Shown here piece by piece: positions 13,788 through 52,721 of a stretch of 64,000 bases of DNA. Source of the stretch: a virus. How positions within the stretch are numbered: the first letter of the stretch is position 1; every line of letters starts with the position of its first letter. The translations under genes and the position numbers were made by a program. The DNA is taken from IMG/VR virus record IMGVR_UViG_3300047678_000094, positions 33,449 to 97,448 of that record; one strand, written 5' to 3'. The notes beneath the pieces were generated by a model, which saw only the letters and a list, made by a program, of their open reading frames with translations, was not told the DNA's origin and did not search any database.

Positions 13788-16700
13788 AAAAAAAGAGTAT
13801 TTTGAAAACGATGTAGCTCTGCAAGGCATTTACGCTGCAGGCTCTCTCGGTACAGCCGGACAGGTTCTTAAGTCTGATGGAGACAGCGTATATTGGGGTA
13901 CAGATTCTGCTTCCGGCGGAGATGCAGCCACACTAGACGGATACGACTCTACAGCGTTTGTGCTCGTAACAGATTACGAAGATTCTGATGTTCTAACAAA
14001 AATTAAAAACGTAGATGGGTCCGGATCGGGTCTTGATGCAGACCTTCTAGACGGCCATGACACATCATACTTTGCCACAGCTTCAAGTCTAGGTTCGTAT
14101 CTACCATTGGCTGGTGGCACGATGACTGGTGATTTGCTTATTAGTGCTGGACATGGACTTGCTTGGTCAAACAGTTCAGCAAATCGTATTTACATAGAAA
14201 ATAACGGCACAAATTGGACTTTTAATCGCCAAACATCGGTTCCTGCCTATATCGATACGCCATTCTATGTTCCACTTGCCACTGGTGTTCTTACTTTCAA
14301 TACTGGACCATACGTCGGTGCTAGCGTAATCTGGCACGCCGGTAACGATGGTGCAGGCTCAGGTCTTGATGCTGACTTGCTGGATGGTATGAACACCACA
14401 ACGGTTGGTGCAGTAAGCTCAATCTTAGCACTAGATTCCGGTGGTACTGCAACAGCATTACAATTTAATGCTTCTACAACAACACCTTATTACGCGTTCT
14501 ATCAGAGTGGCGCCGCTACTAATGAGAAGCGTTGGTATTGGGTTGCTACTGGTGGAGTTCTCTACCTCCGCACCATCAACGACGCGTTTAGTAGTGACAG
14601 CACTGTTCTTTATTTTACACGCTCAGGACAAACTCCTGGTGTTGCGCAATTTACTGTGCCATTGGGTACAACAGGACAAACGTTTGCTATCGGAAGTGTC
14701 GCCAACCCACGTTTCTATATGTACAATAGTAGCGGTACTGCTTCAACTTTAGTTGCTGGAGCCGACAGTGGTGCTGCTTGGATTGGAACATTTACGAACA
14801 GCTTCTTTTCTCTTTATGCAAATTCTGCAGAAAGACTTAGAGTAACAACTTCTGGGTCTCTATTGAGAGATGGTGCGTACACGATATGGGACAGTAACAA
14901 TGACGGTTCCGGATCGGGGCTTGATGCCGACACAACCGATGGATATCATTTAAACCAAAACGTGCTGACAACAAGTTCTCCTAGATTTGTCGGTGTTGGT
15001 GTTGCATATAGTGGAGGTTCACCAGAATTTTATCTCGATGGTGGATACACAGCATTCACCGGAAACTCCAACAATCCCGGTCTTCGTATTCAAAGATATA
15101 CAGGCAACTACTACGTAGATTTTATACACGACACAAATGGAACCGGTGAACATCTTCATATTGCTGTTCGCTCCGGCGGAGCAGCTGTAGCTACACTACG
15201 CATTTATCCAACAACTATGACCTTCTTGGGCAACACAGTTTGGCATGCCGGTAACGATGGCGCGGGTTCTGGTCTTGATGCCGATTTGCTTGATGGTATA
15301 AACAGCACGTCGTTTGCAAGATTAGACACGGATCCAACGTGGGTCTCGGGGCGAATAGTTCAGTTCACAATGAACAGCAACATTGCTCTATCGAGCGCGA
15401 CGAGCAGTGAATATTACGCTCTGGCTGCTCTTGGAAACGGGACTGGAGCCGCTGTAATTTCATTCCACCGTCCAGGATCATTCGCGGCGTATCTTGGACT
15501 TGATACGGACAATGGTCTGAAGTACGGCGGCTGGTCTGCGGGAGGACCGTTTACAGTCTGGCACTCCGGTAACGACGGTTCTGGCTCTGGTCTTGATGCT
15601 GATACCGTTGGTGGATTAAACTCCACGCAATTTCTGCGTTCAGATATAACCCAACAAGGTGGCGTCGCATATCTGGCGCAAGATTTCAATACTTATCCAA
15701 ACGTGTATAACGTCTCGTTTGCCAACATTACCGGTTCAACCAATCTGCCAACTGGTATGGCCTCAGTTAACTCGTACCGCTTTATCATGGCCGGTGGAGA
15801 TACGGCTGGGCGTGGAGTTGACCTTGTTGTCACACAGGAAAATCCTTATGCAAATATGTTCTTCAGGGAGCGAACATACGGCGGTTGGAGCAAGATTTGG
15901 CACAACAACAACGATGGCGCAGGTTCTGGTCTTGATGCCGACTTGCTCGACGGGTACAATATCGGCACATCGGGCGCCGCCATTGGCCTACTAAACGCTG
16001 CGTGGACTAGAAGTGCTGTCACTACGTTCACTCAGGGCTACGGCGTCCTCTTCGCCAACTCGGGCGCTACGCACGGCATCTTCGACTACAACAACACCGC
16101 CCTTATCATAACCTACAATACGTCTGATTGGGCTTCATCAGTTCGTATCAATTCAGCCAGCACGGATATTTATGCGAACTCAGTTCCGCTATCGTGGAAC
16201 GGACAAACCATAAACCTATCTTCAACAGCGAACCCACGTTTCTACATGTACAACAACGCCGGAACGGCTTCTACACTTATCGTAGGGGCTGATAGTGGTG
16301 CGGCATGGATTGGTACGTTCACCAACTCAAACTTCTCGCTTTACGCGAATTCATCGGAACGTCTCCGTATAGGCCCATCGGGGTCGCTTCTGCGCGATGC
16401 AACTCACACGATGTGGGACGCCAACAACGACGGCGCAGGTTCTGGTCTTGATGCCGATCTGCTTGATGGATACAGCAGCGAAGCATTCGCCCGTCTCGCT
16501 GCAACGTCAATATCCTTTACGAGTGCTGCTTCGGGCTTCAACGTGTTTCTCTCGAAATATGTGTACTTCAATATTATTGACCAAACATCAACGGATGGCC
16601 AGACAGGTATTCGGATCACAACCAAAAATGGTGCTGGTGTAGACAAACACACCTACATCTACACGACCTCAGGCAATGATCTACGCATTCAACAAGGTTC

Positions 16701-33290: not shown

Positions 33291-33701
33291 ATGCCAGAGC
33301 TAAAAGACCTAGTACAATTCGCTCTTGACAAGCAACCATCGAAGTTCAAGGACGCCTTCGCGGAACTCCTTGCAAATCGCGTTGTTGATCGAGTAGATGA
33401 ACTCAAAGCAGAAATTTCAGCGAACATGTTCGGTGAAGCTCCTGAAGAAGACGAAGAAGATCTCGATGATTCTGACGATGACGTGGTATTCGACGACGAC
33501 GAAGATGTTCTTGTAGATGACGAAGATCTCGCAGATTTTGATCTCGATGACGAAGACATGCCAGCCGACGATGAAGAAATCGACTTCGAAGATGAATATG
33601 AAGACGGAATAGTAGATGAGGATGATGATTCTTTTAATGAGGAAAGTCTCGACGCCCTAGAAGAAGAGACAACACATATTCACGCTAAAGCAGGCAAATA
33701 A
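33291..33701 (+). CDS. Highly acidic prohead core protein (gp67-like position)
   Basis: Asp/Glu-rich, directly after the portal gene. Confidence 0.55.
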   Translation: MPELKDLVQFALDKQPSKFKDAFAELLANRVVDRVDELKAEISANMFGEAPEEDEEDLDDSDDDVVFDDDEDVLVDDEDLADFDLDDEDMPADDEEIDFEDEYEDGIVDEDDDSFNEESLDALEEETTHIHAKAGK

Positions 33702-42876: not shown

Positions 42877-43494
42877 ATGGCTAAACGCGAAAAAGTTCAC
42901 TATGTGGACAACAAGAGATTATATGAAGACATGGTTAAGTTCATTGCAGCTTATCGTATTGCTGTGAAAAAGGGAGCTGAGAAACCACGAATTCCAGAGT
43001 ACGTCGGTGCGTGCATATTGAAGATTGCACAACGCCTGTCTCTGCGTCCTAACTTCATAGGATATACATACCGTGATGAAATGGTGGGTGATGGCATTGA
43101 GAATGTCCTCACCTACATTCACAACTACGATCCAGAAAAATACAACAATCCATTTGCATACTTCACTCAGATCATCTACTTCGCCTTTCTCCGTCGCATG
43201 GATAAAGAGAAGAAGCAGTCATACATCAAGCACAAGATGCTCGAGCAGAGTTCTCTTATGAACCTGTTGGCTGATATGCCAGGTGGTGAGACTAATGAGG
43301 ACGGCCACTCGGTAACAGTAATGGTAAACGTCGATGGACGCCTAAACGATCTCGTCAACAAATTCGAGAAACGTGGCGTTAAGACGAAGAAGAAACGTGG
43401 TGTTGAGAAATTCGCGGATGACGCGGACCCACCCTTCTTAGATCCACATCCTGACGATGTGAAACCTGAAAACAAAAACGAGGAAACTGTATGA
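42877..43494 (+). CDS. gp55: Late sigma factor gp55
   Basis: HYVDNK, PNFIGYTYRDEMVGDGIE, NPFAYFTQI. Confidence 0.95.
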   Translation: MAKREKVHYVDNKRLYEDMVKFIAAYRIAVKKGAEKPRIPEYVGACILKIAQRLSLRPNFIGYTYRDEMVGDGIENVLTYIHNYDPEKYNNPFAYFTQIIYFAFLRRMDKEKKQSYIKHKMLEQSSLMNLLADMPGGETNEDGHSVTVMVNVDGRLNDLVNKFEKRGVKTKKKRGVEKFADDADPPFLDPHPDDVKPENKNEETV

Positions 43495-46618: not shown

Positions 46619-46847
46619 TCAAAGTTACAAAGTTTTGGCGGACAGCCTTGGTGTTCCTCTAATCCCGAAACGAAAAGCTCCAAACCGTATTGATACAAAT
46701 GGACCGGTTGCTGTTTGTGGAGAATGTGGTGTGACTGTTTACCGTGTTATGGCTTATAGCTGTCCACATCAAAATTGCCCATGTGGTCTTGGTTCAGCCG
46801 GATCACTTTGTCTAAATAATAATGAATTGAGTGGGAGCTTGAAATAA
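46605..46847 (+). CDS. Small Cys-rich protein
   Basis: CGEC...CPHQNCPC. Confidence 0.5.
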   Translation: MNDYSQSYKVLADSLGVPLIPKRKAPNRIDTNGPVAVCGECGVTVYRVMAYSCPHQNCPCGLGSAGSLCLNNNELSGSLK

Positions 46848-47431
46848 TGGAAACGCAACAACCCTTACCAGAATTTAAGATTGAGGGGTCGGCGATGTTC
46901 ATCCCGACGGCTTTACCGTTGGTGTCTGAAAACGATCCAATTCTTAAACAGAAAACAGAACGATTTGACTTTGACAATCCACCGATGAACCCGGTCCAAT
47001 TGTATCAAAACTTAGGCCGAACTCTGATGGCGCATGACGCGCTTGGACTCGCTGCACCCCAAGTTGGACTGCCGTATCGGTTCTTTGTGCTTAGAACAGA
47101 AAATATTCTTGGAGTTTTCAACCCGATTTTGGTTGATAAATCTGAGGAAGAGGTTACAATGGAGGAAGGTTGTCTCTCATTCGTCAATCTATTCATTAAG
47201 ATCAAACGTCCACAGCGCATTCGCGCTCGTTTTACGACGCCGGATGGTCAGACGCAAACAGCAGTGTTTGATGGAATGACCGCGAGGGCGTTTCTACACG
47301 AGTATGATCACCTTGAAGGTAAGGTATTCACAACGGTCGCGAACCGTTTCCACCTTGATGCGGGTAGGAAGAAACGTCACCTAATAAAGTCCGGTAGATA
47401 TACCGTGAGTCATGTCATTAAGGAGGCCTAA
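46847..47431 (+). CDS. def: Peptide deformylase
   Basis: GLAAPQVG, EGCLS, HEYDHLEG. Confidence 0.92.
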   Translation: METQQPLPEFKIEGSAMFIPTALPLVSENDPILKQKTERFDFDNPPMNPVQLYQNLGRTLMAHDALGLAAPQVGLPYRFFVLRTENILGVFNPILVDKSEEEVTMEEGCLSFVNLFIKIKRPQRIRARFTTPDGQTQTAVFDGMTARAFLHEYDHLEGKVFTTVANRFHLDAGRKKRHLIKSGRYTVSHVIKEA

Positions 47432-48799
47432 GTGGTCAAGATTATTGTTGCAAAAACTAAGCACGACTGCGAACATCTTCTCGGGCAGTATCTTGATGAG
47501 TCGCACTTTGATACGCTTGTCACAGAAGATGTAGATTGCTATATGCCACCAGACTGCGACATCGCGACGCAAGCTCAATGTGGTGGAGATTGCGAAGTAT
47601 GTCCATCAGGAACAGATGAACGCCGCATCGCATTCAAATTCCGTAAGAATTACTTTTCGAAGAAACTGAGAGATCCTGCATATGAAGGGCTCAAGGAAGC
47701 TGCTACCGAGTCTCAAAATCGTGGACTGGCAGCTGGCCCACGCGGTGCTAGCCTTAGTGTCGATGGGCGTGGTGGTCGTGACTGGGTTACTGATTATGAG
47801 CTAGAAGTTCTTGACTTCTTCCTTAACGACACAAGTCGCCTGTGGGATGGACCCACCATTCCTGAGATCCGCGCCAAATACAAGAACAAAGCCAAGTCTG
47901 ATGAGACACGCGGTACTGTGTGGCTTCGTTCACAAGTAACCAAAGAATATCCCGAATACCACAATTGGTTTGATACTTGGGTTGATAAAATCAAGGAGCT
48001 TCCTCGTGATGAGCAAAAAGCCGCTGCTAAAATTGTCGCTGAAAAGTGGATTAGTTATACTAACTACGCTAAGTCTGTCTACTCTGGAGTCGCTGGTTGG
48101 TATGATAGGTATCCGCGTATCCCGTTTGGAAGAGCTACGTCTTACACTCGGGATAACCCTGAAAAATTCGCTCTCGCCTACCCATTCCTCCAAGCCCTAA
48201 ATAAAGGGTACAAGGATTTGATGCCGTGGCGTTGGGGAAACCAGAAGGCTGCGGCTGATAAATTGGATCAGAGATATCTGGTTCCAAAAACTGTCTTCAC
48301 CACAATCACAGTGAACAAGTCTTTCCGTACAGCAGCCCACCGTGACGCTGGTGACTTCCAAGAAGGTATCTCCAATCTTCTAACGCTCGGTGATGGTGAG
48401 TATACAGGTGGATACCTGATCTTCCCAGAGTACCGTATCGCCGTAGACGTTCGCCCCGGCGACCTGCTACTGGTAAACAACCACGAGATCATCCACGGTA
48501 ACACCGAGATTAAATTGAATCATCCAGATGCTGAACGCATCTCAATCGTGTGCTATTTTCGTGAAAAGATGCTTGAGCTTGGAAGTTTTGAATATGAGAA
48601 AACCCGTGAACAATATGTCGAAGATAGAAGAAAAAACAAAGACCACCCCGCTCAAAGACCTCTCTGGAACGGTATTACACCCGGAATGTGGGATGAACGA
48701 GAGTGGTATGACTATCTTGGGAGTAGATTGGGGGACGACGCCGTCCGTAAGTATCACCCGGATGCGTTTGCTTCCTCCCTTGATGCGTTTTTCGCGTAA
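47432..48799 (+). CDS. TET/JBP-family 2OG-Fe(II) dioxygenase (nucleobase oxidation)
   Basis: FTTITVN..FRTAAHRDAGD (HxD), GGYLIFPEY, PGDLLL, IHGNT (distal His), RISIVCYFRE. Confidence 0.8.
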   Translation: MVKIIVAKTKHDCEHLLGQYLDESHFDTLVTEDVDCYMPPDCDIATQAQCGGDCEVCPSGTDERRIAFKFRKNYFSKKLRDPAYEGLKEAATESQNRGLAAGPRGASLSVDGRGGRDWVTDYELEVLDFFLNDTSRLWDGPTIPEIRAKYKNKAKSDETRGTVWLRSQVTKEYPEYHNWFDTWVDKIKELPRDEQKAAAKIVAEKWISYTNYAKSVYSGVAGWYDRYPRIPFGRATSYTRDNPEKFALAYPFLQALNKGYKDLMPWRWGNQKAAADKLDQRYLVPKTVFTTITVNKSFRTAAHRDAGDFQEGISNLLTLGDGEYTGGYLIFPEYRIAVDVRPGDLLLVNNHEIIHGNTEIKLNHPDAERISIVCYFREKMLELGSFEYEKTREQYVEDRRKNKDHPAQRPLWNGITPGMWDEREWYDYLGSRLGDDAVRKYHPDAFASSLDAFFA

Positions 48800-48816
48800 C
48801 ATCAGGATGCCTAAAT

Positions 48817-48912
48817 ATGTCTAGTTATTTCCGTCGCTGGGTAATAGTTGCAATCTGTGCTGCTATTGTAGTTGCGATGGTATATTACTCGGCTGGAGAA
48901 GGTGTTTACTGA
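48817..48912 (+). CDS. Small membrane peptide
   Basis: MSSYFRRWVIVAICAAIVVAMVYYSAGEGVY. Confidence 0.35.
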   Translation: MSSYFRRWVIVAICAAIVVAMVYYSAGEGVY

Positions 48913-49169
48913 TGCGAGAACTACAAGAAAAGAAACTTTTGGCTAGAGTTAAATCTGCGATCAAAGGCCGTGTTGATGCCGCCAAATCGTTTGGAAAGAA
49001 CTTTTCTCACTACGCAAAAAATCCACACATCCCGGTTCCAGGTACTAGTCCTGAAGAAAAAGATGCTAGACGTCGCTATAATGATTACATGAAAACAAGA
49101 CAGCGTCGTCCGGGTGATTTGGATGAAGGAGTCTTCAGCCAACGTAAACCAGACAAACCAAAATTGTAA
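48912..49169 (+). CDS. Small basic hypothetical protein
   Basis: 85 aa, Lys/Arg-rich. Confidence 0.5.
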   Translation: MRELQEKKLLARVKSAIKGRVDAAKSFGKNFSHYAKNPHIPVPGTSPEEKDARRRYNDYMKTRQRRPGDLDEGVFSQRKPDKPKL

Positions 49170-49256
49170 GAGGAAAAATGACAAACCTATTAGAAAGAGT
49201 CCGTGCACTTCATAAAATGGCAAGAGAAACAGCTGTACACCATGGCATAGTGAGAG

Positions 49257-49285
49257 TTGACTAAAACCTTTTTATGTTTTATGAT
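49257..49285 (+). promoter_or_regulatory. Sigma70-like promoter
   Basis: TTGACT-N17-TATGAT just upstream of the glycosyltransferase. Confidence 0.55.
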
Positions 49286-49296
49286 GGAGAATTTGT

Positions 49297-50643
49297 TTGA
49301 AAATTATGGTAGCTATGCACGACTTCAACAATTTTGGAGGCATCATCAATCACAACGAACAGTTAATTGCGGGTCTTAAGGATCTCGGTCACACCGTTAC
49401 GTTCGCTTATATCAAAACCACAACCAAGCCATCCTATTCTGTAGACACCTCAAAGGTTCCAGATGGATATGAGATTGGCGCTGGAACAGGCCTGCCTGTC
49501 CATCAAGGTAACGGATACATTTCTCCATACTACAGCATGAAGAATTCTGAGTCCGTCGCGAAATTCGTGAAGGATGCGAATGAACATGACATCCTTATCT
49601 GGCAGTCGATCTTCGGCTTCAAATCTCAAGCCACCGAGAAGGACAAAACATGGCTACCTATGATCGAAGGGGTATCCGCCAAACAGATAGCGGTTATACA
49701 CGACGGGAACCTAAAAAAGCTGTACAGCTGGATTTACCGTTTTGCGAATCACCTGGCAGGCCTAGCGTGTGTCCATCCGGCTGCTATGAAGCAAGCGGAT
49801 TTCATGCCTGTGCCTCGGAACATGATTCTGAACCCACAGGATGTCTCCGAGGTAGAAGTTGTCCCGTTCACCAAACGGAAAAACCAACTCCTAGCCCCAC
49901 AAACATTCAAACGCTGGAAGCGTGTAGACGACCTGGTTGCGGCGGTGCCATATATAGATGGTTCTGTTCTAATTGCCGGGGACGGTATGGAGCGAGCATA
50001 TATGGCTTCAGAAGAAAAATGCAAGCCTGAATACTACTGCACCAAAGAGCTTGACCCTGATGCTACAGAAGATCGCCTTGGTAAACGCATCTGGCAGAAC
50101 GCTCTTGATTCTGGAAAAATGGAATATCTAGGATTTATCACAGGTGCGTCCCGTGACAAAATACTAAATAACTCTAAGTTCCTCCTTGATCCCAGCTGGT
50201 CGCTGACGTACGGAGAACACTTTAACCGCTCTATCGTAGATGCTATGCGCGTAGGATGCGTGCCGATCGCTCGTAACTATGGTATTAGCGACAACGTTGA
50301 TGGAAACGGAACGCTCTTCAAGCCGGGTGTTAATTACCTGATGATTCCCCACGATGTTAAGCCGAAAGAGTTCGGTCGTCTCGTAAATGAGTGCTTCTTA
50401 ATTAGTCCCAGCGCATATGCCTACATGGTCGCTCAGAACAAGGAAGTGATCAAAAATTTCGACCGCGAAAAGATTGCGCAACAATTTGTCAATCTTGCTA
50501 TGGGCAAGAAAGGCAGTGGATATTATGAGAAGGCCGAAACTGGTCGTCTGAATATCGACAACAACGTGACCCAAAAAACGGGTGACAAAATCTGGGACGA
50601 ACACTTTGAAGTCCCTTCTTCTCTTGATAGCTTTTTTTCATAG
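49297..50643 (+). CDS. GT-B fold glycosyltransferase, putatively DNA-modifying
   Basis: FGGIINH, IHD, FKRWKRVDDLV, GEHFNRSIVDAMRVGCVPI. Confidence 0.75.
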   Translation: MKIMVAMHDFNNFGGIINHNEQLIAGLKDLGHTVTFAYIKTTTKPSYSVDTSKVPDGYEIGAGTGLPVHQGNGYISPYYSMKNSESVAKFVKDANEHDILIWQSIFGFKSQATEKDKTWLPMIEGVSAKQIAVIHDGNLKKLYSWIYRFANHLAGLACVHPAAMKQADFMPVPRNMILNPQDVSEVEVVPFTKRKNQLLAPQTFKRWKRVDDLVAAVPYIDGSVLIAGDGMERAYMASEEKCKPEYYCTKELDPDATEDRLGKRIWQNALDSGKMEYLGFITGASRDKILNNSKFLLDPSWSLTYGEHFNRSIVDAMRVGCVPIARNYGISDNVDGNGTLFKPGVNYLMIPHDVKPKEFGRLVNECFLISPSAYAYMVAQNKEVIKNFDREKIAQQFVNLAMGKKGSGYYEKAETGRLNIDNNVTQKTGDKIWDEHFEVPSSLDSFFS

Positions 50644-50646
50644 GAA

Positions 50647-51087
50647 ATGATTATGGGTAACATTACTACAAGCATTACAGACGAACAAAGGGTCTTGGCT
50701 GAAAAAAACGCCAAAGAAAATGGTGGTGGATTACGCTACAATATCGGAAAGCTGAAATACAACCTTATCCCACCAGAGTGGGAACAAGGACTTGCTCACC
50801 TTCTTACAGTTGGTTCTTGGAAATACTCCGATCGCAACTGGGAGAATGGACTTGCTTGGGACGACACGATCGCCGCTCTTAAACGTCACCTGAATAAGTG
50901 GTTGAGTGGTGAAAACTATGATCCTGAAACTGGATCACATCATCTGATATCAACCGCCTGGAATGCGCTCGTTCTCTTTTCAATGCAAATCCGCGGCAAA
51001 GGTAAGGATAATGTTCCTCGCCCAAAATATGTCATGGAAGTTTTCGTTAAGGGAACACTTAAAGACCCGACAAAACCAAATACGTAA
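50647..51087 (+). CDS. dATP/dGTP diphosphohydrolase-like protein (DUF5664)
   Basis: RYNIGKLKYNLIP, GSWKYSDRNW, RHL, DPETGSHHL...WN. Confidence 0.8.
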   Translation: MIMGNITTSITDEQRVLAEKNAKENGGGLRYNIGKLKYNLIPPEWEQGLAHLLTVGSWKYSDRNWENGLAWDDTIAALKRHLNKWLSGENYDPETGSHHLISTAWNALVLFSMQIRGKGKDNVPRPKYVMEVFVKGTLKDPTKPNT

Positions 51088-51092
51088 ATTGC

Positions 51093-51121
51093 TTGCCTTT
51101 CGGGGCGACCTAAGCTATAAT
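51093..51121 (+). promoter_or_regulatory. Sigma70-like promoter
   Basis: TTGCCT-N17-TATAAT. Confidence 0.6.
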
Positions 51122-51141
51122 TGACAAACATAAGGAATAAC

Positions 51142-52047
51142 ATGGAAAACCAAAGCGTAGGACCTGCCCCAAGTCCATCACCAAGTGGGGGAATGCAAAT
51201 TCAGATCCCAATTGAGAAACTGCGTGAGAGAAAACTCTTCGTTGCAACTCCGATGTATGGTGGTCAGTGTAGCGGGATGTTTGCTCGTTCTTGTGCAGAC
51301 CTTTCGGCTCTTTGCACAAAGTACGGCATCCAACTCCGCTACTACTTTCTCTTCAACGAATCTCTGATCACACGCGGCCGTAACTACTGCGTCGACGAAT
51401 TCCTACGTTCCGGTTATACGCACATGATGTTCATCGACTCGGATATTGGATTCAACGCCAACGACGTTATCGCATTGATGGCAATGCAATCGCCAGATCC
51501 AAAAGATGATAATTACGATATCCTCTGTGGTCCCTACCCAAAGAAGTGTATCTCTTGGGAGAAGATTAAGATGGCCGTGGATAAAGGATTTGCTGATGAA
51601 GACCCGAACGTCCTAGAACGGTTTGTTGGTGATTACGTTTTCAATCCAGTCGGTGGAACGAAAACAATTCAGATCAATCAACCAACAGAAATTCTCGAAG
51701 CTGGAACAGGGTTTATGATGATCCGTCGTAACACCTTTGAGAAATTCGCTGCGGCTTATCCTCAACAAGCATATAAACCTGATCACGTAAGAACTGCTCA
51801 CTTCGACGGTTCGCGTGAAATTATTGCTTACTTCGATACGCCAATCGACCCAGAATCAAAACGCTACCTTTCAGAGGACTATATGTTCTGCCAATGGACT
51901 CGCAAGATCGGACTGAAAGTGTGGTTCTGCCCATGGATGAAACTCCAACATGTTGGATCGTTCATCTTCGGTGGTTCTCTAGCTGACCTTGCACAAATCG
52001 GAGCATCAGCCACCGCTGACCAAGCTCAAATCAAGAAACCAAAGTGA
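51142..52047 (+). CDS. GT-A fold glycosyltransferase-like protein
   Basis: ATPMYGG, ESLITRGRN, FIDSDI (DxD), GTGFMMI, LSEDYMFC; ATG 51142 after aagga. Confidence 0.7.
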   Translation: MENQSVGPAPSPSPSGGMQIQIPIEKLRERKLFVATPMYGGQCSGMFARSCADLSALCTKYGIQLRYYFLFNESLITRGRNYCVDEFLRSGYTHMMFIDSDIGFNANDVIALMAMQSPDPKDDNYDILCGPYPKKCISWEKIKMAVDKGFADEDPNVLERFVGDYVFNPVGGTKTIQINQPTEILEAGTGFMMIRRNTFEKFAAAYPQQAYKPDHVRTAHFDGSREIIAYFDTPIDPESKRYLSEDYMFCQWTRKIGLKVWFCPWMKLQHVGSFIFGGSLADLAQIGASATADQAQIKKPK

Positions 52048-52061
52048 TAGGATAACACACA

Positions 52062-52721
52062 ATGCAACTTTCCAACGAGACGAACTCAGTTCTGAAAAAC
52101 TTCGCCAGCATCAACCCGAACCTTCTGGTGAAGCCTGGTAAGAGCCTTCGCACTATCTCTCCGACCAAGTCGGTCATGGCTCGCGCCACCGTCGCGGAGA
52201 AATTCGACAAAGGCTTCGCGATCTTCGATCTGAGCCAGTTCCTCGGCCGTCTGTCGCTCTTCGACAAGCCGGAACTGACGATCAACGAGTCCTTCATGGA
52301 AATCTCTGAAGGTGAAGAATACTCCGAGTTCGCATTCGCGGATCAGGAGAACATCGTAGCTCCGCCTGAGAAAGAGATCACCCTGCCGAAAGCAGAGATC
52401 AACTTTGAGCTCACGGAAAAGGACTTCTCCAAAGTCATGAAAGCCATGAGCGTATCCGGCCTTCCGGAAATCGCTGTGTCTGGCGAAGATGGTAAACTCC
52501 AGCTTCAAGCCATTGACTCCAAAGGTGTCAGCAAAGACGTCTTCACAATCAACATCGGCAAGACGAAACTGAAATTCCGCATGATCTTCCGTGCGGACAA
52601 CCTGAAGATCATCCCCGGCGATTATGCCGTGGCGATCTCTTCGAAAGGTCTCGCCCATTTCAAATCGGAGAAGGTTGAGTACTGGATTGCTGTTGAGCAA
52701 AACAGCAAGTTCGAAGGCTAA
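52062..52721 (+). CDS. gp45: Sliding clamp gp45
   Basis: LKNFASIN, FAIFDLSQFL, NLKIIPGDY, YWIAVE. Confidence 0.93.
   Translation: MQLSNETNSVLKNFASINPNLLVKPGKSLRTISPTKSVMARATVAEKFDKGFAIFDLSQFLGRLSLFDKPELTINESFMEISEGEEYSEFAFADQENIVAPPEKEITLPKAEINFELTEKDFSKVMKAMSVSGLPEIAVSGEDGKLQLQAIDSKGVSKDVFTINIGKTKLKFRMIFRADNLKIIPGDYAVAISSKGLAHFKSEKVEYWIAVEQNSKFEG

Follow-up and report, generated by a model that had tools for sequence, protein, structure and literature searches.

This study concerns a 64,000-nucleotide stretch of viral DNA (positions 33,449 to 97,448 of IMG/VR record IMGVR_UViG_3300047678_000094, hereafter the window), which forms the right-hand 64 kb of a 97,448-bp IMG/VR contig from a T4-like phage, the record being 57% complete. 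Within it, a TET/JBP-family Fe(II)/2-oxoglutarate (2OG) dioxygenase and a GT-B glycosyltransferase (GT), encoded just before the gene for the gp45 sliding clamp, both end in a short peptide like the C-terminal tail of T4-like DNA polymerases. The explanation that we favour, and which we regard as reasonably probable as a whole, is that the oxygenase would hydroxylate thymine already incorporated in the phage DNA to 5-hydroxymethyluracil (5hmU); that GT-B, encoded two genes downstream, would transfer a sugar from a host nucleotide-sugar onto the 5hmU hydroxyl; and that both tailed enzymes would be recruited to gp45 clamps that stay behind on phage DNA after its replication. Such a pathway would yield a glycosylated thymine similar to base J, able to shield the DNA from nucleases, and docking on the clamp would make modification fast, extend it over the whole genome and direct it to phage rather than host DNA. 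The 455-residue oxygenase is a TET/JBP dioxygenase in both family and fold; we infer the substrate base, the transfer of sugar to DNA and the binding to the clamp.

An earlier, sequence-only reading of this DNA had called the oxygenase TET/JBP-like, and this identity was borne out: its profile score is above the cut-off, TET folds come out on top in structural comparison and the catalytic residues are conserved. The protein matches Pfam Tet_JBP (PF12851) at E 1e-26, its 93.5 bits (96.2 when the whole genome was searched) being above the cut-off of 34.9. An AF2 model built with 36 homologues (pLDDT 89) has as its best Foldseek matches CcTet, NgTET1, human TET2 and CMD1 (E ~1e-10), and its double-stranded beta-helix fold is closest, by Foldseek, to those of DNA-base dioxygenases. 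His303, Asp305 and His355 are invariant, and Arg369 is at least 90% conserved, among the 36 homologues, and these iron- and 2OG-binding residues align with the HRD, HG and R of CcTet. The earlier reading had allowed that the oxygenase might prove to lie outside TET/JBP; on the Pfam score and the Foldseek matches, its membership of the family holds. At least 2735 homologues were found, one of them, with 88% identity, on a 173-kb contig, and the subfamily to which the window oxygenase belongs is specific to T4-like phages and has ~200 extra N-terminal residues. Residues 36-57 of this extension (47537-47602) form a Cys-rich insert, with 5 Cys in 22 residues, which some homologues have and others lack through a clean deletion, and which may be an optional zinc-binding loop.

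The tails of the oxygenase and GT-B, together with their frequencies among homologues, are given in Table 1; we scored the motif strictly as [STN]L[DE]x[FL][FLWY] at no more than 3 residues from the end of the protein. T4 gp43 ends in ASLDFLFG and T4 gp55 in SLDFLYEAND. The C-termini of gp43 and gp55 of T4 and RB69 are gp45-binding peptides, with 1b8h as the RB69 clamp-peptide entry. The same tail pattern is found on gp43 in eight related contigs (Stenotrophomonas phage DLP6, Caulobacter phage Cr30, G001, G002, L066/L067, L069 and L082), and in L082 the tail of GT-B is identical to that of the polymerase. In G001, which is 98% complete, gp43 and the oxygenase are the only two of 232 open reading frames (ORFs) to carry the motif at the C-terminus. 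Both partners are tailed in 64 of the 71 contigs with a complete TET/GT-B pair, and a listing of these 71 pairs shows that tail variants often match within one contig.

The tail is also found on other enzymes encoded in the cassettes that follow the oxygenase gene in related phages: on TAGT (12/12), GT-B (3/3), GNAT proteins (2/3), a family of unknown function (2/2) and, by the loose motif, on amino-acid:DNA transferases (AADTs; 23/37). Among the same cassette families it occurs on at most one of 40 kinases and on none of the glutamine amidotransferases (GATases), DUF3310, DUF5664 or ParB-like proteins. It is absent, too, from the more distant phage TET homologues of ~300 residues and from the most divergent full-length ones. 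In the AF2 model the oxygenase tail lies on a low-confidence end (pLDDT 50 for the last block), and the end that carries it is probably flexible. Thus the match between the tails of the oxygenase and GT-B and the gp45-binding tails of the polymerase suggests that modification is probably done on the sliding clamp, through a predicted binding of the tails. We found no paper on polymerase-type clamp tails of phage TET or GT enzymes; in Pyle et al., gp45/clamp is merely listed among co-occurring annotations.

That the oxygenase and GT-B behave as a pair follows from their linkage. A GT-B homologue was found in 80 IMG/VR loci, 67 of which extend at least 1.6 kb upstream of it; in 60 of these 67 a TET homologue ends no more than 1.5 kb upstream of GT-B, and in 8 further loci the two genes stand in the reverse order. 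The assignment of GT-B as GT4-like draws on its relatives, in that PF00534 is present on most of the best listed homologues (255 were found in all) and on 90% of its Atlas cluster. No GT-B homologue was found in cultured phages by tblastn, and PDB sequence searches with the GT-B, GT-A and DUF5664 proteins, singly or as profiles, gave nothing significant. Homology of GT-B to the T4 alpha-glucosyltransferase (alpha-GT; PF11440) was considered and rejected (hhalign probability 13.9% over 60 columns), the T4 enzyme being a neighbour of GT-B by Atlas features only. The TAGT profile (PF20691) matches neither GT of the window; TAGT is found instead in L030, in DLP6 and, weakly, in Cr30.

Considering which base is modified, the sequence-only reading had seen neither a C5-methyltransferase (C5-MTase) nor a nucleotide-level hydroxymethylase in the window. 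This now extends to the whole 97,448-bp record, which has no match to PF00145 or to PF00303, the ThyA family, so that a search of the remaining genome, as far as this 57%-complete record covers it, also yields no C5-MTase. Because the record is incomplete, we searched five relatives that have the same oxygenase: the complete genomes of the cultured phages DLP6 and Cr30 (oxygenase identity 49% and 46%) and the IMG/VR contigs G001, G002 and G003 (98%, 96% and 87% complete). A C5-cytosine methyltransferase (PF00145) was found in none of the five. These relatives encode ThyX, or ThyA in Cr30, and therefore make dTMP. Orthologous oxygenases with 55-80% identity adjoin P-loop kinases of the 5hmU DNA kinase (5-HMUDK) type (Ploopntkinase3), AADTs, GATases and TAGT; in the window itself, GTs are the only 5hmU-consuming type of enzyme present. 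Hypermodification enzymes of the kinds found beside the oxygenase orthologues need 5hmU in DNA (PMC8989533, PMC13229309): 5-HMUDK and AADT from other phages act on 5-hydroxymethyl-deoxyuridine in DNA, and contigs in which TET_JBP replaces the dUMP hydroxymethylase have previously been read as converting T to 5hmU (both PMC8989533), while phage T-dioxygenases have been demonstrated (PMC13229309). Post-replicative modification of thymine, which the earlier reading had offered as a possibility, is thus the best-supported reading, given the lack of a C5-MTase in the record and its five relatives and the 5hmU-consuming enzymes next to the orthologues.

The arrangement of the related loci points the same way. 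In 80 related IMG/VR loci the order gp46, peptide deformylase, TET, a variable cassette, GT-A and gp45 is conserved, and across phages the cassette contains a P-loop nucleotide kinase (PF18751), AADT (PF18724), GATase, TAGT (PF20691), inositol-1-phosphate synthase, an N6/N4 methylase or a GNAT protein. DLP6 has TAGT with a sugar nucleotidyltransferase, and Cr30 has AADT, a TAGT-like protein, DUF5664 and inositol-1-phosphate synthase. In the oxygenase tree the window and L003/L004, which also have GT-B cassettes, form one clade (100/99 support); its sister group (100/99) is L005/L008/L009, whose cassettes hold a kinase, AADT and GATase; and the GT-B label requires at least 3 changes on the tree. 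Sister clades thus have different cassettes, and one orthologous oxygenase would therefore feed interchangeable downstream modules, whose common intermediate would most simply be 5hmU. A base-J-like modification of thymine is supported by this gene content. In the table of a review (PMC8228603) the DNA of DLP6 is entered as resistant to restriction enzymes; in the original study a set of 18 such enzymes had been tried on DLP6 DNA.

Several observations weigh against this scheme. The Pfam matches of GT-B itself, to Glycos_transf_1 and Glyco_trans_1_4, fall just under the cut-off (4e-5; 23.6 bits against 26.4), and its relation to T4 alpha-GT is unsupported. A very divergent C5-MTase could be missed by the PF00145 profile, and we know of no nucleoside analysis for the phage of the window, DLP6 or Cr30. 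As to the clamp, gp43 was not found on this record, so that the tail of the phage's own polymerase is unseen, and the gp55 of this phage does not have the tail motif. Furthermore, a gp26-like baseplate-hub ORF (phrog_150; genome positions 13946-14656, minus strand), which lies outside the window and ~19 kb before its start, ends in SSLDDFF plus three residues. The motif alone is therefore no proof of clamp binding. No baseplate-hub ORF of G001 has it, and its presence on this one may be due to chance or be a lineage-specific feature.

These points bear on three other explanations. The shared C-terminal peptide may be a ligand not of gp45 but of some other protein (the host beta clamp, gp32 or a chaperone, for example), or it may serve as a signal for degradation or localisation. 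The binding of gp45 by the tails is predicted from their sequence, the baseplate-hub ORF bears the same motif, and in some relatives (the tails of Cr30) the motif resembles bacterial beta-clamp motifs. However, in eight related contigs the polymerase itself ends in this peptide, which also matches the tails of T4 gp43 and gp55, both known to bind gp45, and the phage encodes its own clamp and clamp loader right beside the oxygenase and GT-B genes; we thus consider another partner or a signal function unlikely. We hold it to be equally improbable that the oxygenase makes 5hmU, which would be final or otherwise processed, while GT-B and/or GT-A puts sugar on a virion protein, a component of the host envelope or some other non-DNA target. 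GT4-type enzymes do act mostly on lipids and glycans, and GT-A is also found in phages that have no TET gene; yet GT-B adjoins TET in ~90% of loci and has a polymerase-type tail, which would be hard to account for if its substrate were not DNA.

Less likely still, and by some way, is that the oxygenase acts on 5-methylcytosine (5mC), which would be supplied either by a C5-MTase encoded in the 43% of the genome that the record lacks or by host methylation, with GT-B capping 5-hydroxymethylcytosine (5hmC). The record is after all 57% complete; those phage TETs of clades A/B that have been characterised produce 5hmC (PMC8256090); and T-dioxygenases are also able to oxidise 5mC (PMC13229309). Against this, PF00145 is absent from the five relatives, among them two complete genomes of cultured phages and contigs that are 96-98% complete, and the orthologues are linked to the 5hmU-specific kinase and AADT. 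Hydroxylation of thymine, with capping of 5hmU by a clamp-bound GT-B, accordingly remains the explanation that we prefer.

The features on which these arguments draw are collected in Table 1.

Table 1. Features of the oxygenase-to-clamp region; positions are those of the window.
Feature	Position	Strand	Evidence
TET/JBP-family Fe(II)/2OG dioxygenase, 455 residues, predicted thymine-to-5hmU	47432..48799	+	Pfam Tet_JBP; phrog_24024, 6e-161
H303-R-D305, HxD iron ligands of oxygenase	48338..48346	+	coordinates checked by translation
Distal His355 of oxygenase	48494-48496	+	invariant in 36 homologues
2OG-binding Arg369 of oxygenase	48536-48538	+	at least 90% conserved in 36 homologues
Oxygenase tail SSLDAFFA, candidate gp45-binding peptide	48773..48796	+	strict motif in 107/120 homologue clusters
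31-codon ORF, hydrophobic, possibly membrane-spanning peptide	48817-48912	+	translation; no family match
85-residue basic ORF between oxygenase and GT-B	48912..49169	+	47-49% match in L003/L004
GT4-like GT-B glycosyltransferase, 448 residues, predicted to glycosylate 5hmU in DNA	49297..50643	+	weak Pfam; homologues PF00534
GT-B tail SSLDSFFS, motif as in oxygenase tail	50617..50640	+	110/120 homologues loose, 55/120 strict
DUF5664/dGTP_diPhyd_N (PF18909), 146 residues, predicted NTP diphosphohydrolase	50647..51087	+	Pfam 3.5e-29, 101 bits; phrog_801
GT-A fold glycosyltransferase, phrog_1574, Lys-rich C-terminus	51193..52047	+	Foldseek; listed ORF starts at TTG 51121
gp45 sliding clamp, proposed docking platform	52062..52721	+	Pfam gp45-slide_C, 2.7e-14

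The four genes that had been picked out between 47432 and 52047 (those for the TET/JBP oxygenase, GT-B, DUF5664 and a GT-A-like protein) are all real and lie on the plus strand where they had been placed, and their position directly upstream of gp45-gp44-gp62 was likewise confirmed. On that strand gp55 (42877-43494), gp47, gp46, two small ORFs and a peptide deformylase gene (46847-47431) come before the oxygenase gene, which is followed by the 85-residue ORF, GT-B, DUF5664, GT-A, gp45, gp44, gp62 and regA. The gp45 of the window is similar to the RB69 and T4 clamps (1b77/1b8h and 1czd; phmmer, E 5e-23). The motif of late promoters, TATAAATA, occurs 14 times in the window, with ~2 expected, and not once between 38420 and 54572; the genes discussed here therefore sit in an early/middle replication block. 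The 0.5-kb gap between the oxygenase and GT-B genes is filled by the two small ORFs of Table 1, of which the longer, very basic one has neither a Pfam nor a PHROG match. Megablast found nothing similar to the region among phage records.

The sequence-only reading had named both GTs and the hydrolase together with the oxygenase. Of the three, GT-B is the probable partner, adjoining TET as described above; GT-A and DUF5664 are no more than possible members of the pathway. The AF2 model of GT-A matches STIV A197, LH3 and ColGalT1 (Foldseek, E 9e-8 to 1e-4), and its DxD motif (D106-S-D108, 51436-51444) is invariant in 30 homologues; the protein has no Pfam family. Its true start is probably the ATG at 51193, because of its homologues and the low pLDDT of residues 1-21. 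GT-A stands just before gp45 in nearly all related loci, and it is also found between gp46 and gp45 in Sinorhizobium phage phiM12, and occurs in phiN3, phiM7 and Rhizobium phage RHph_I1_18. A whole-genome search found no Tet_JBP gene in phiM12, and none of the other three phages is among the TET matches in the phage collection. We had considered GT-A as a JGT-like partner of the oxygenase, and downgraded this because GT-A adjoins gp45 in TET-less phages of the phiM12 type; its role may be to attach a second sugar, or its target may be a different one. GT-A and its homologues end in a lysine run instead of the clamp motif, and this K-rich tail could make contact with nucleic acid or membrane.

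Only 7 of ~60 related loci have DUF5664 in this place, some with a GT-B cassette and others with one of the kinase/AADT kind, and in Cr30 the gene lies elsewhere; the hydrolase may add a nucleotide-pool step. In other relatives the same slot is taken by DUF3310, and that the two are one family was rejected, hhalign showing no relation between them; a conserved pyrophosphatase slot is therefore not supported.

Other observations concern the oxygenase and its cassettes in related phages. In DLP6 (L001 8001-9347) and Cr30 (L002 8001-9329) the TET/JBP oxygenase is annotated as 'SNF2 DNA repair protein', a name probably inherited from BLAST hits to trypanosome JBP2. A long AADT (~420 residues) is paired with myo-inositol-1-phosphate synthase in the cassettes of L032/L037-L043/L051 and in Cr30 (L002 13293-14474), a hint that the thymidine adduct there may derive from inositol or be unusual in some other way. 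In four loci (L024, L027, L045 and L049) an N6/N4 DNA methylase (PF01555; family C11, 220 residues) lies directly 3' of the oxygenase gene. CcTet-type enzymes can oxidise N6-methyladenine, and a different substrate is therefore possible in this sub-lineage.

O'Toole et al. tie neighbourhoods with kinases, AADTs and GATases to a ParB-dependent subclass of dioxygenase (PMC13229309). PF02195 (ParB) has no match in the present record, DLP6, Cr30, G001 or G002, and with the profile absent from these five genomes a ParB dependence of the oxygenase is not supported. One cassette family (C8, 431-493 residues) has a weak PHROG match to ParB-like partition proteins (E 2e-6) and is missed by Pfam ParB_N. 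It occurs only in the cassettes of seven relatives (L023, L028, L033, L034, L047, L048 and L078), and in this minority of phages it may correspond to the ParB that published work links to 5mYOX. By analogy, the clamp tail may hold the enzyme on DNA in T4-like phages, as has been suggested for ParB elsewhere.

The chemistry of such a pathway, in the form of phage T-dioxygenases and of 5mYOX with a GT, is already published (2021-2026); what is probably new is the tethering to the clamp through a polymerase-type tail, which we predict from sequence. Hypermodification after replication poses the question of how a few enzymes can reach every target base in time and yet spare the host DNA. Why phages should take the post-replicative route is a mystery to O'Toole et al. 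(2026), who propose that the dioxygenase may be kept on DNA by ParB (PMC13229309). For T4-like phages, the polymerase-type tails of the dioxygenase and its downstream transferases, as predicted ligands of the clamp, would be a concrete and testable answer. In eukaryotes DNMT1 is bound to PCNA, and tethering to gp45 would parallel both this and the gp45-bound alpha-GT of T4. DLP6 and Cr30, which carry the oxygenase with TAGT and/or AADT beside it, are therefore ready test systems, and the scheme predicts a base-J-like glycosyl-thymine in an abundant environmental group of phages. A broader proposal, to which we would give even chances, is that throughout a large and mostly uncultured T4-like clade gp45 docks a plug-and-play hypermodification island, made up of a tailed dioxygenase and interchangeable tailed transferases (GT-B, TAGT, AADT or GNAT). 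Tethering by gp45 would then make modification phage-specific, coupled to replication and genome-wide, in the role proposed for the ParB activator of other T-dioxygenases.

Among known systems, the phage thymine dioxygenases (5mYOX C1/C2, PMC13229309; the contigs of Lee et al. 2021, PMC8989533) are like the window oxygenase in their TET/JBP fold and catalytic residues, in having no neighbouring C5-MTase, in a post-replicative T-to-5hmU entry step (here predicted), and in that orthologues are linked to GTs, P-loop kinases, AADTs and GATases. The window oxygenase differs from both in its ~200 extra N-terminal residues and its setting in a T4-like replication module, and from 5mYOX C1/C2 in the absence of ParB from five genomes, though its relatives have cassettes with enzymes that are described as typical of the ParB-dependent class. 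Neither PMC13229309 nor PMC8989533 mentions a polymerase-type clamp tail such as the window oxygenase has.

With base J of kinetoplastids (JBP1/2 and JGT) the proposed pathway shares a two-step logic, in which hydroxylation of thymine by a TET/JBP enzyme is followed by glycosylation of 5hmU. In contrast to JGT, which is a GT-A enzyme, the partner here is a GT4-like GT-B; the modification would serve to protect a viral genome and not to regulate genes; and the proposed targeting is by a sliding clamp and not by a J-binding or SNF2 domain.

The alpha-GT of T4 reportedly acts together with gp45 (work attributed to Sommer, 2004). It is a DNA glycosyltransferase associated with the clamp, as is proposed for GT-B, and its gene, which lies between genes 47 and 55, has a corresponding place in the T4 genome. 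It co-purifies with gp45 (PMC13216743). It differs in its substrate, 5hmC, which is made before replication from hydroxymethyl-dCTP, and it is without a C-terminal tail of the SLDFLF type. The tails described here are like the peptides of T4/RB69 gp43 and gp55 in their extreme C-terminal position and in the pattern S-L-D/E-x-F/L-F, and differ from them in being found on DNA-modifying enzymes (dioxygenase, GT-B, TAGT and AADT) and not on a polymerase or transcription factors.

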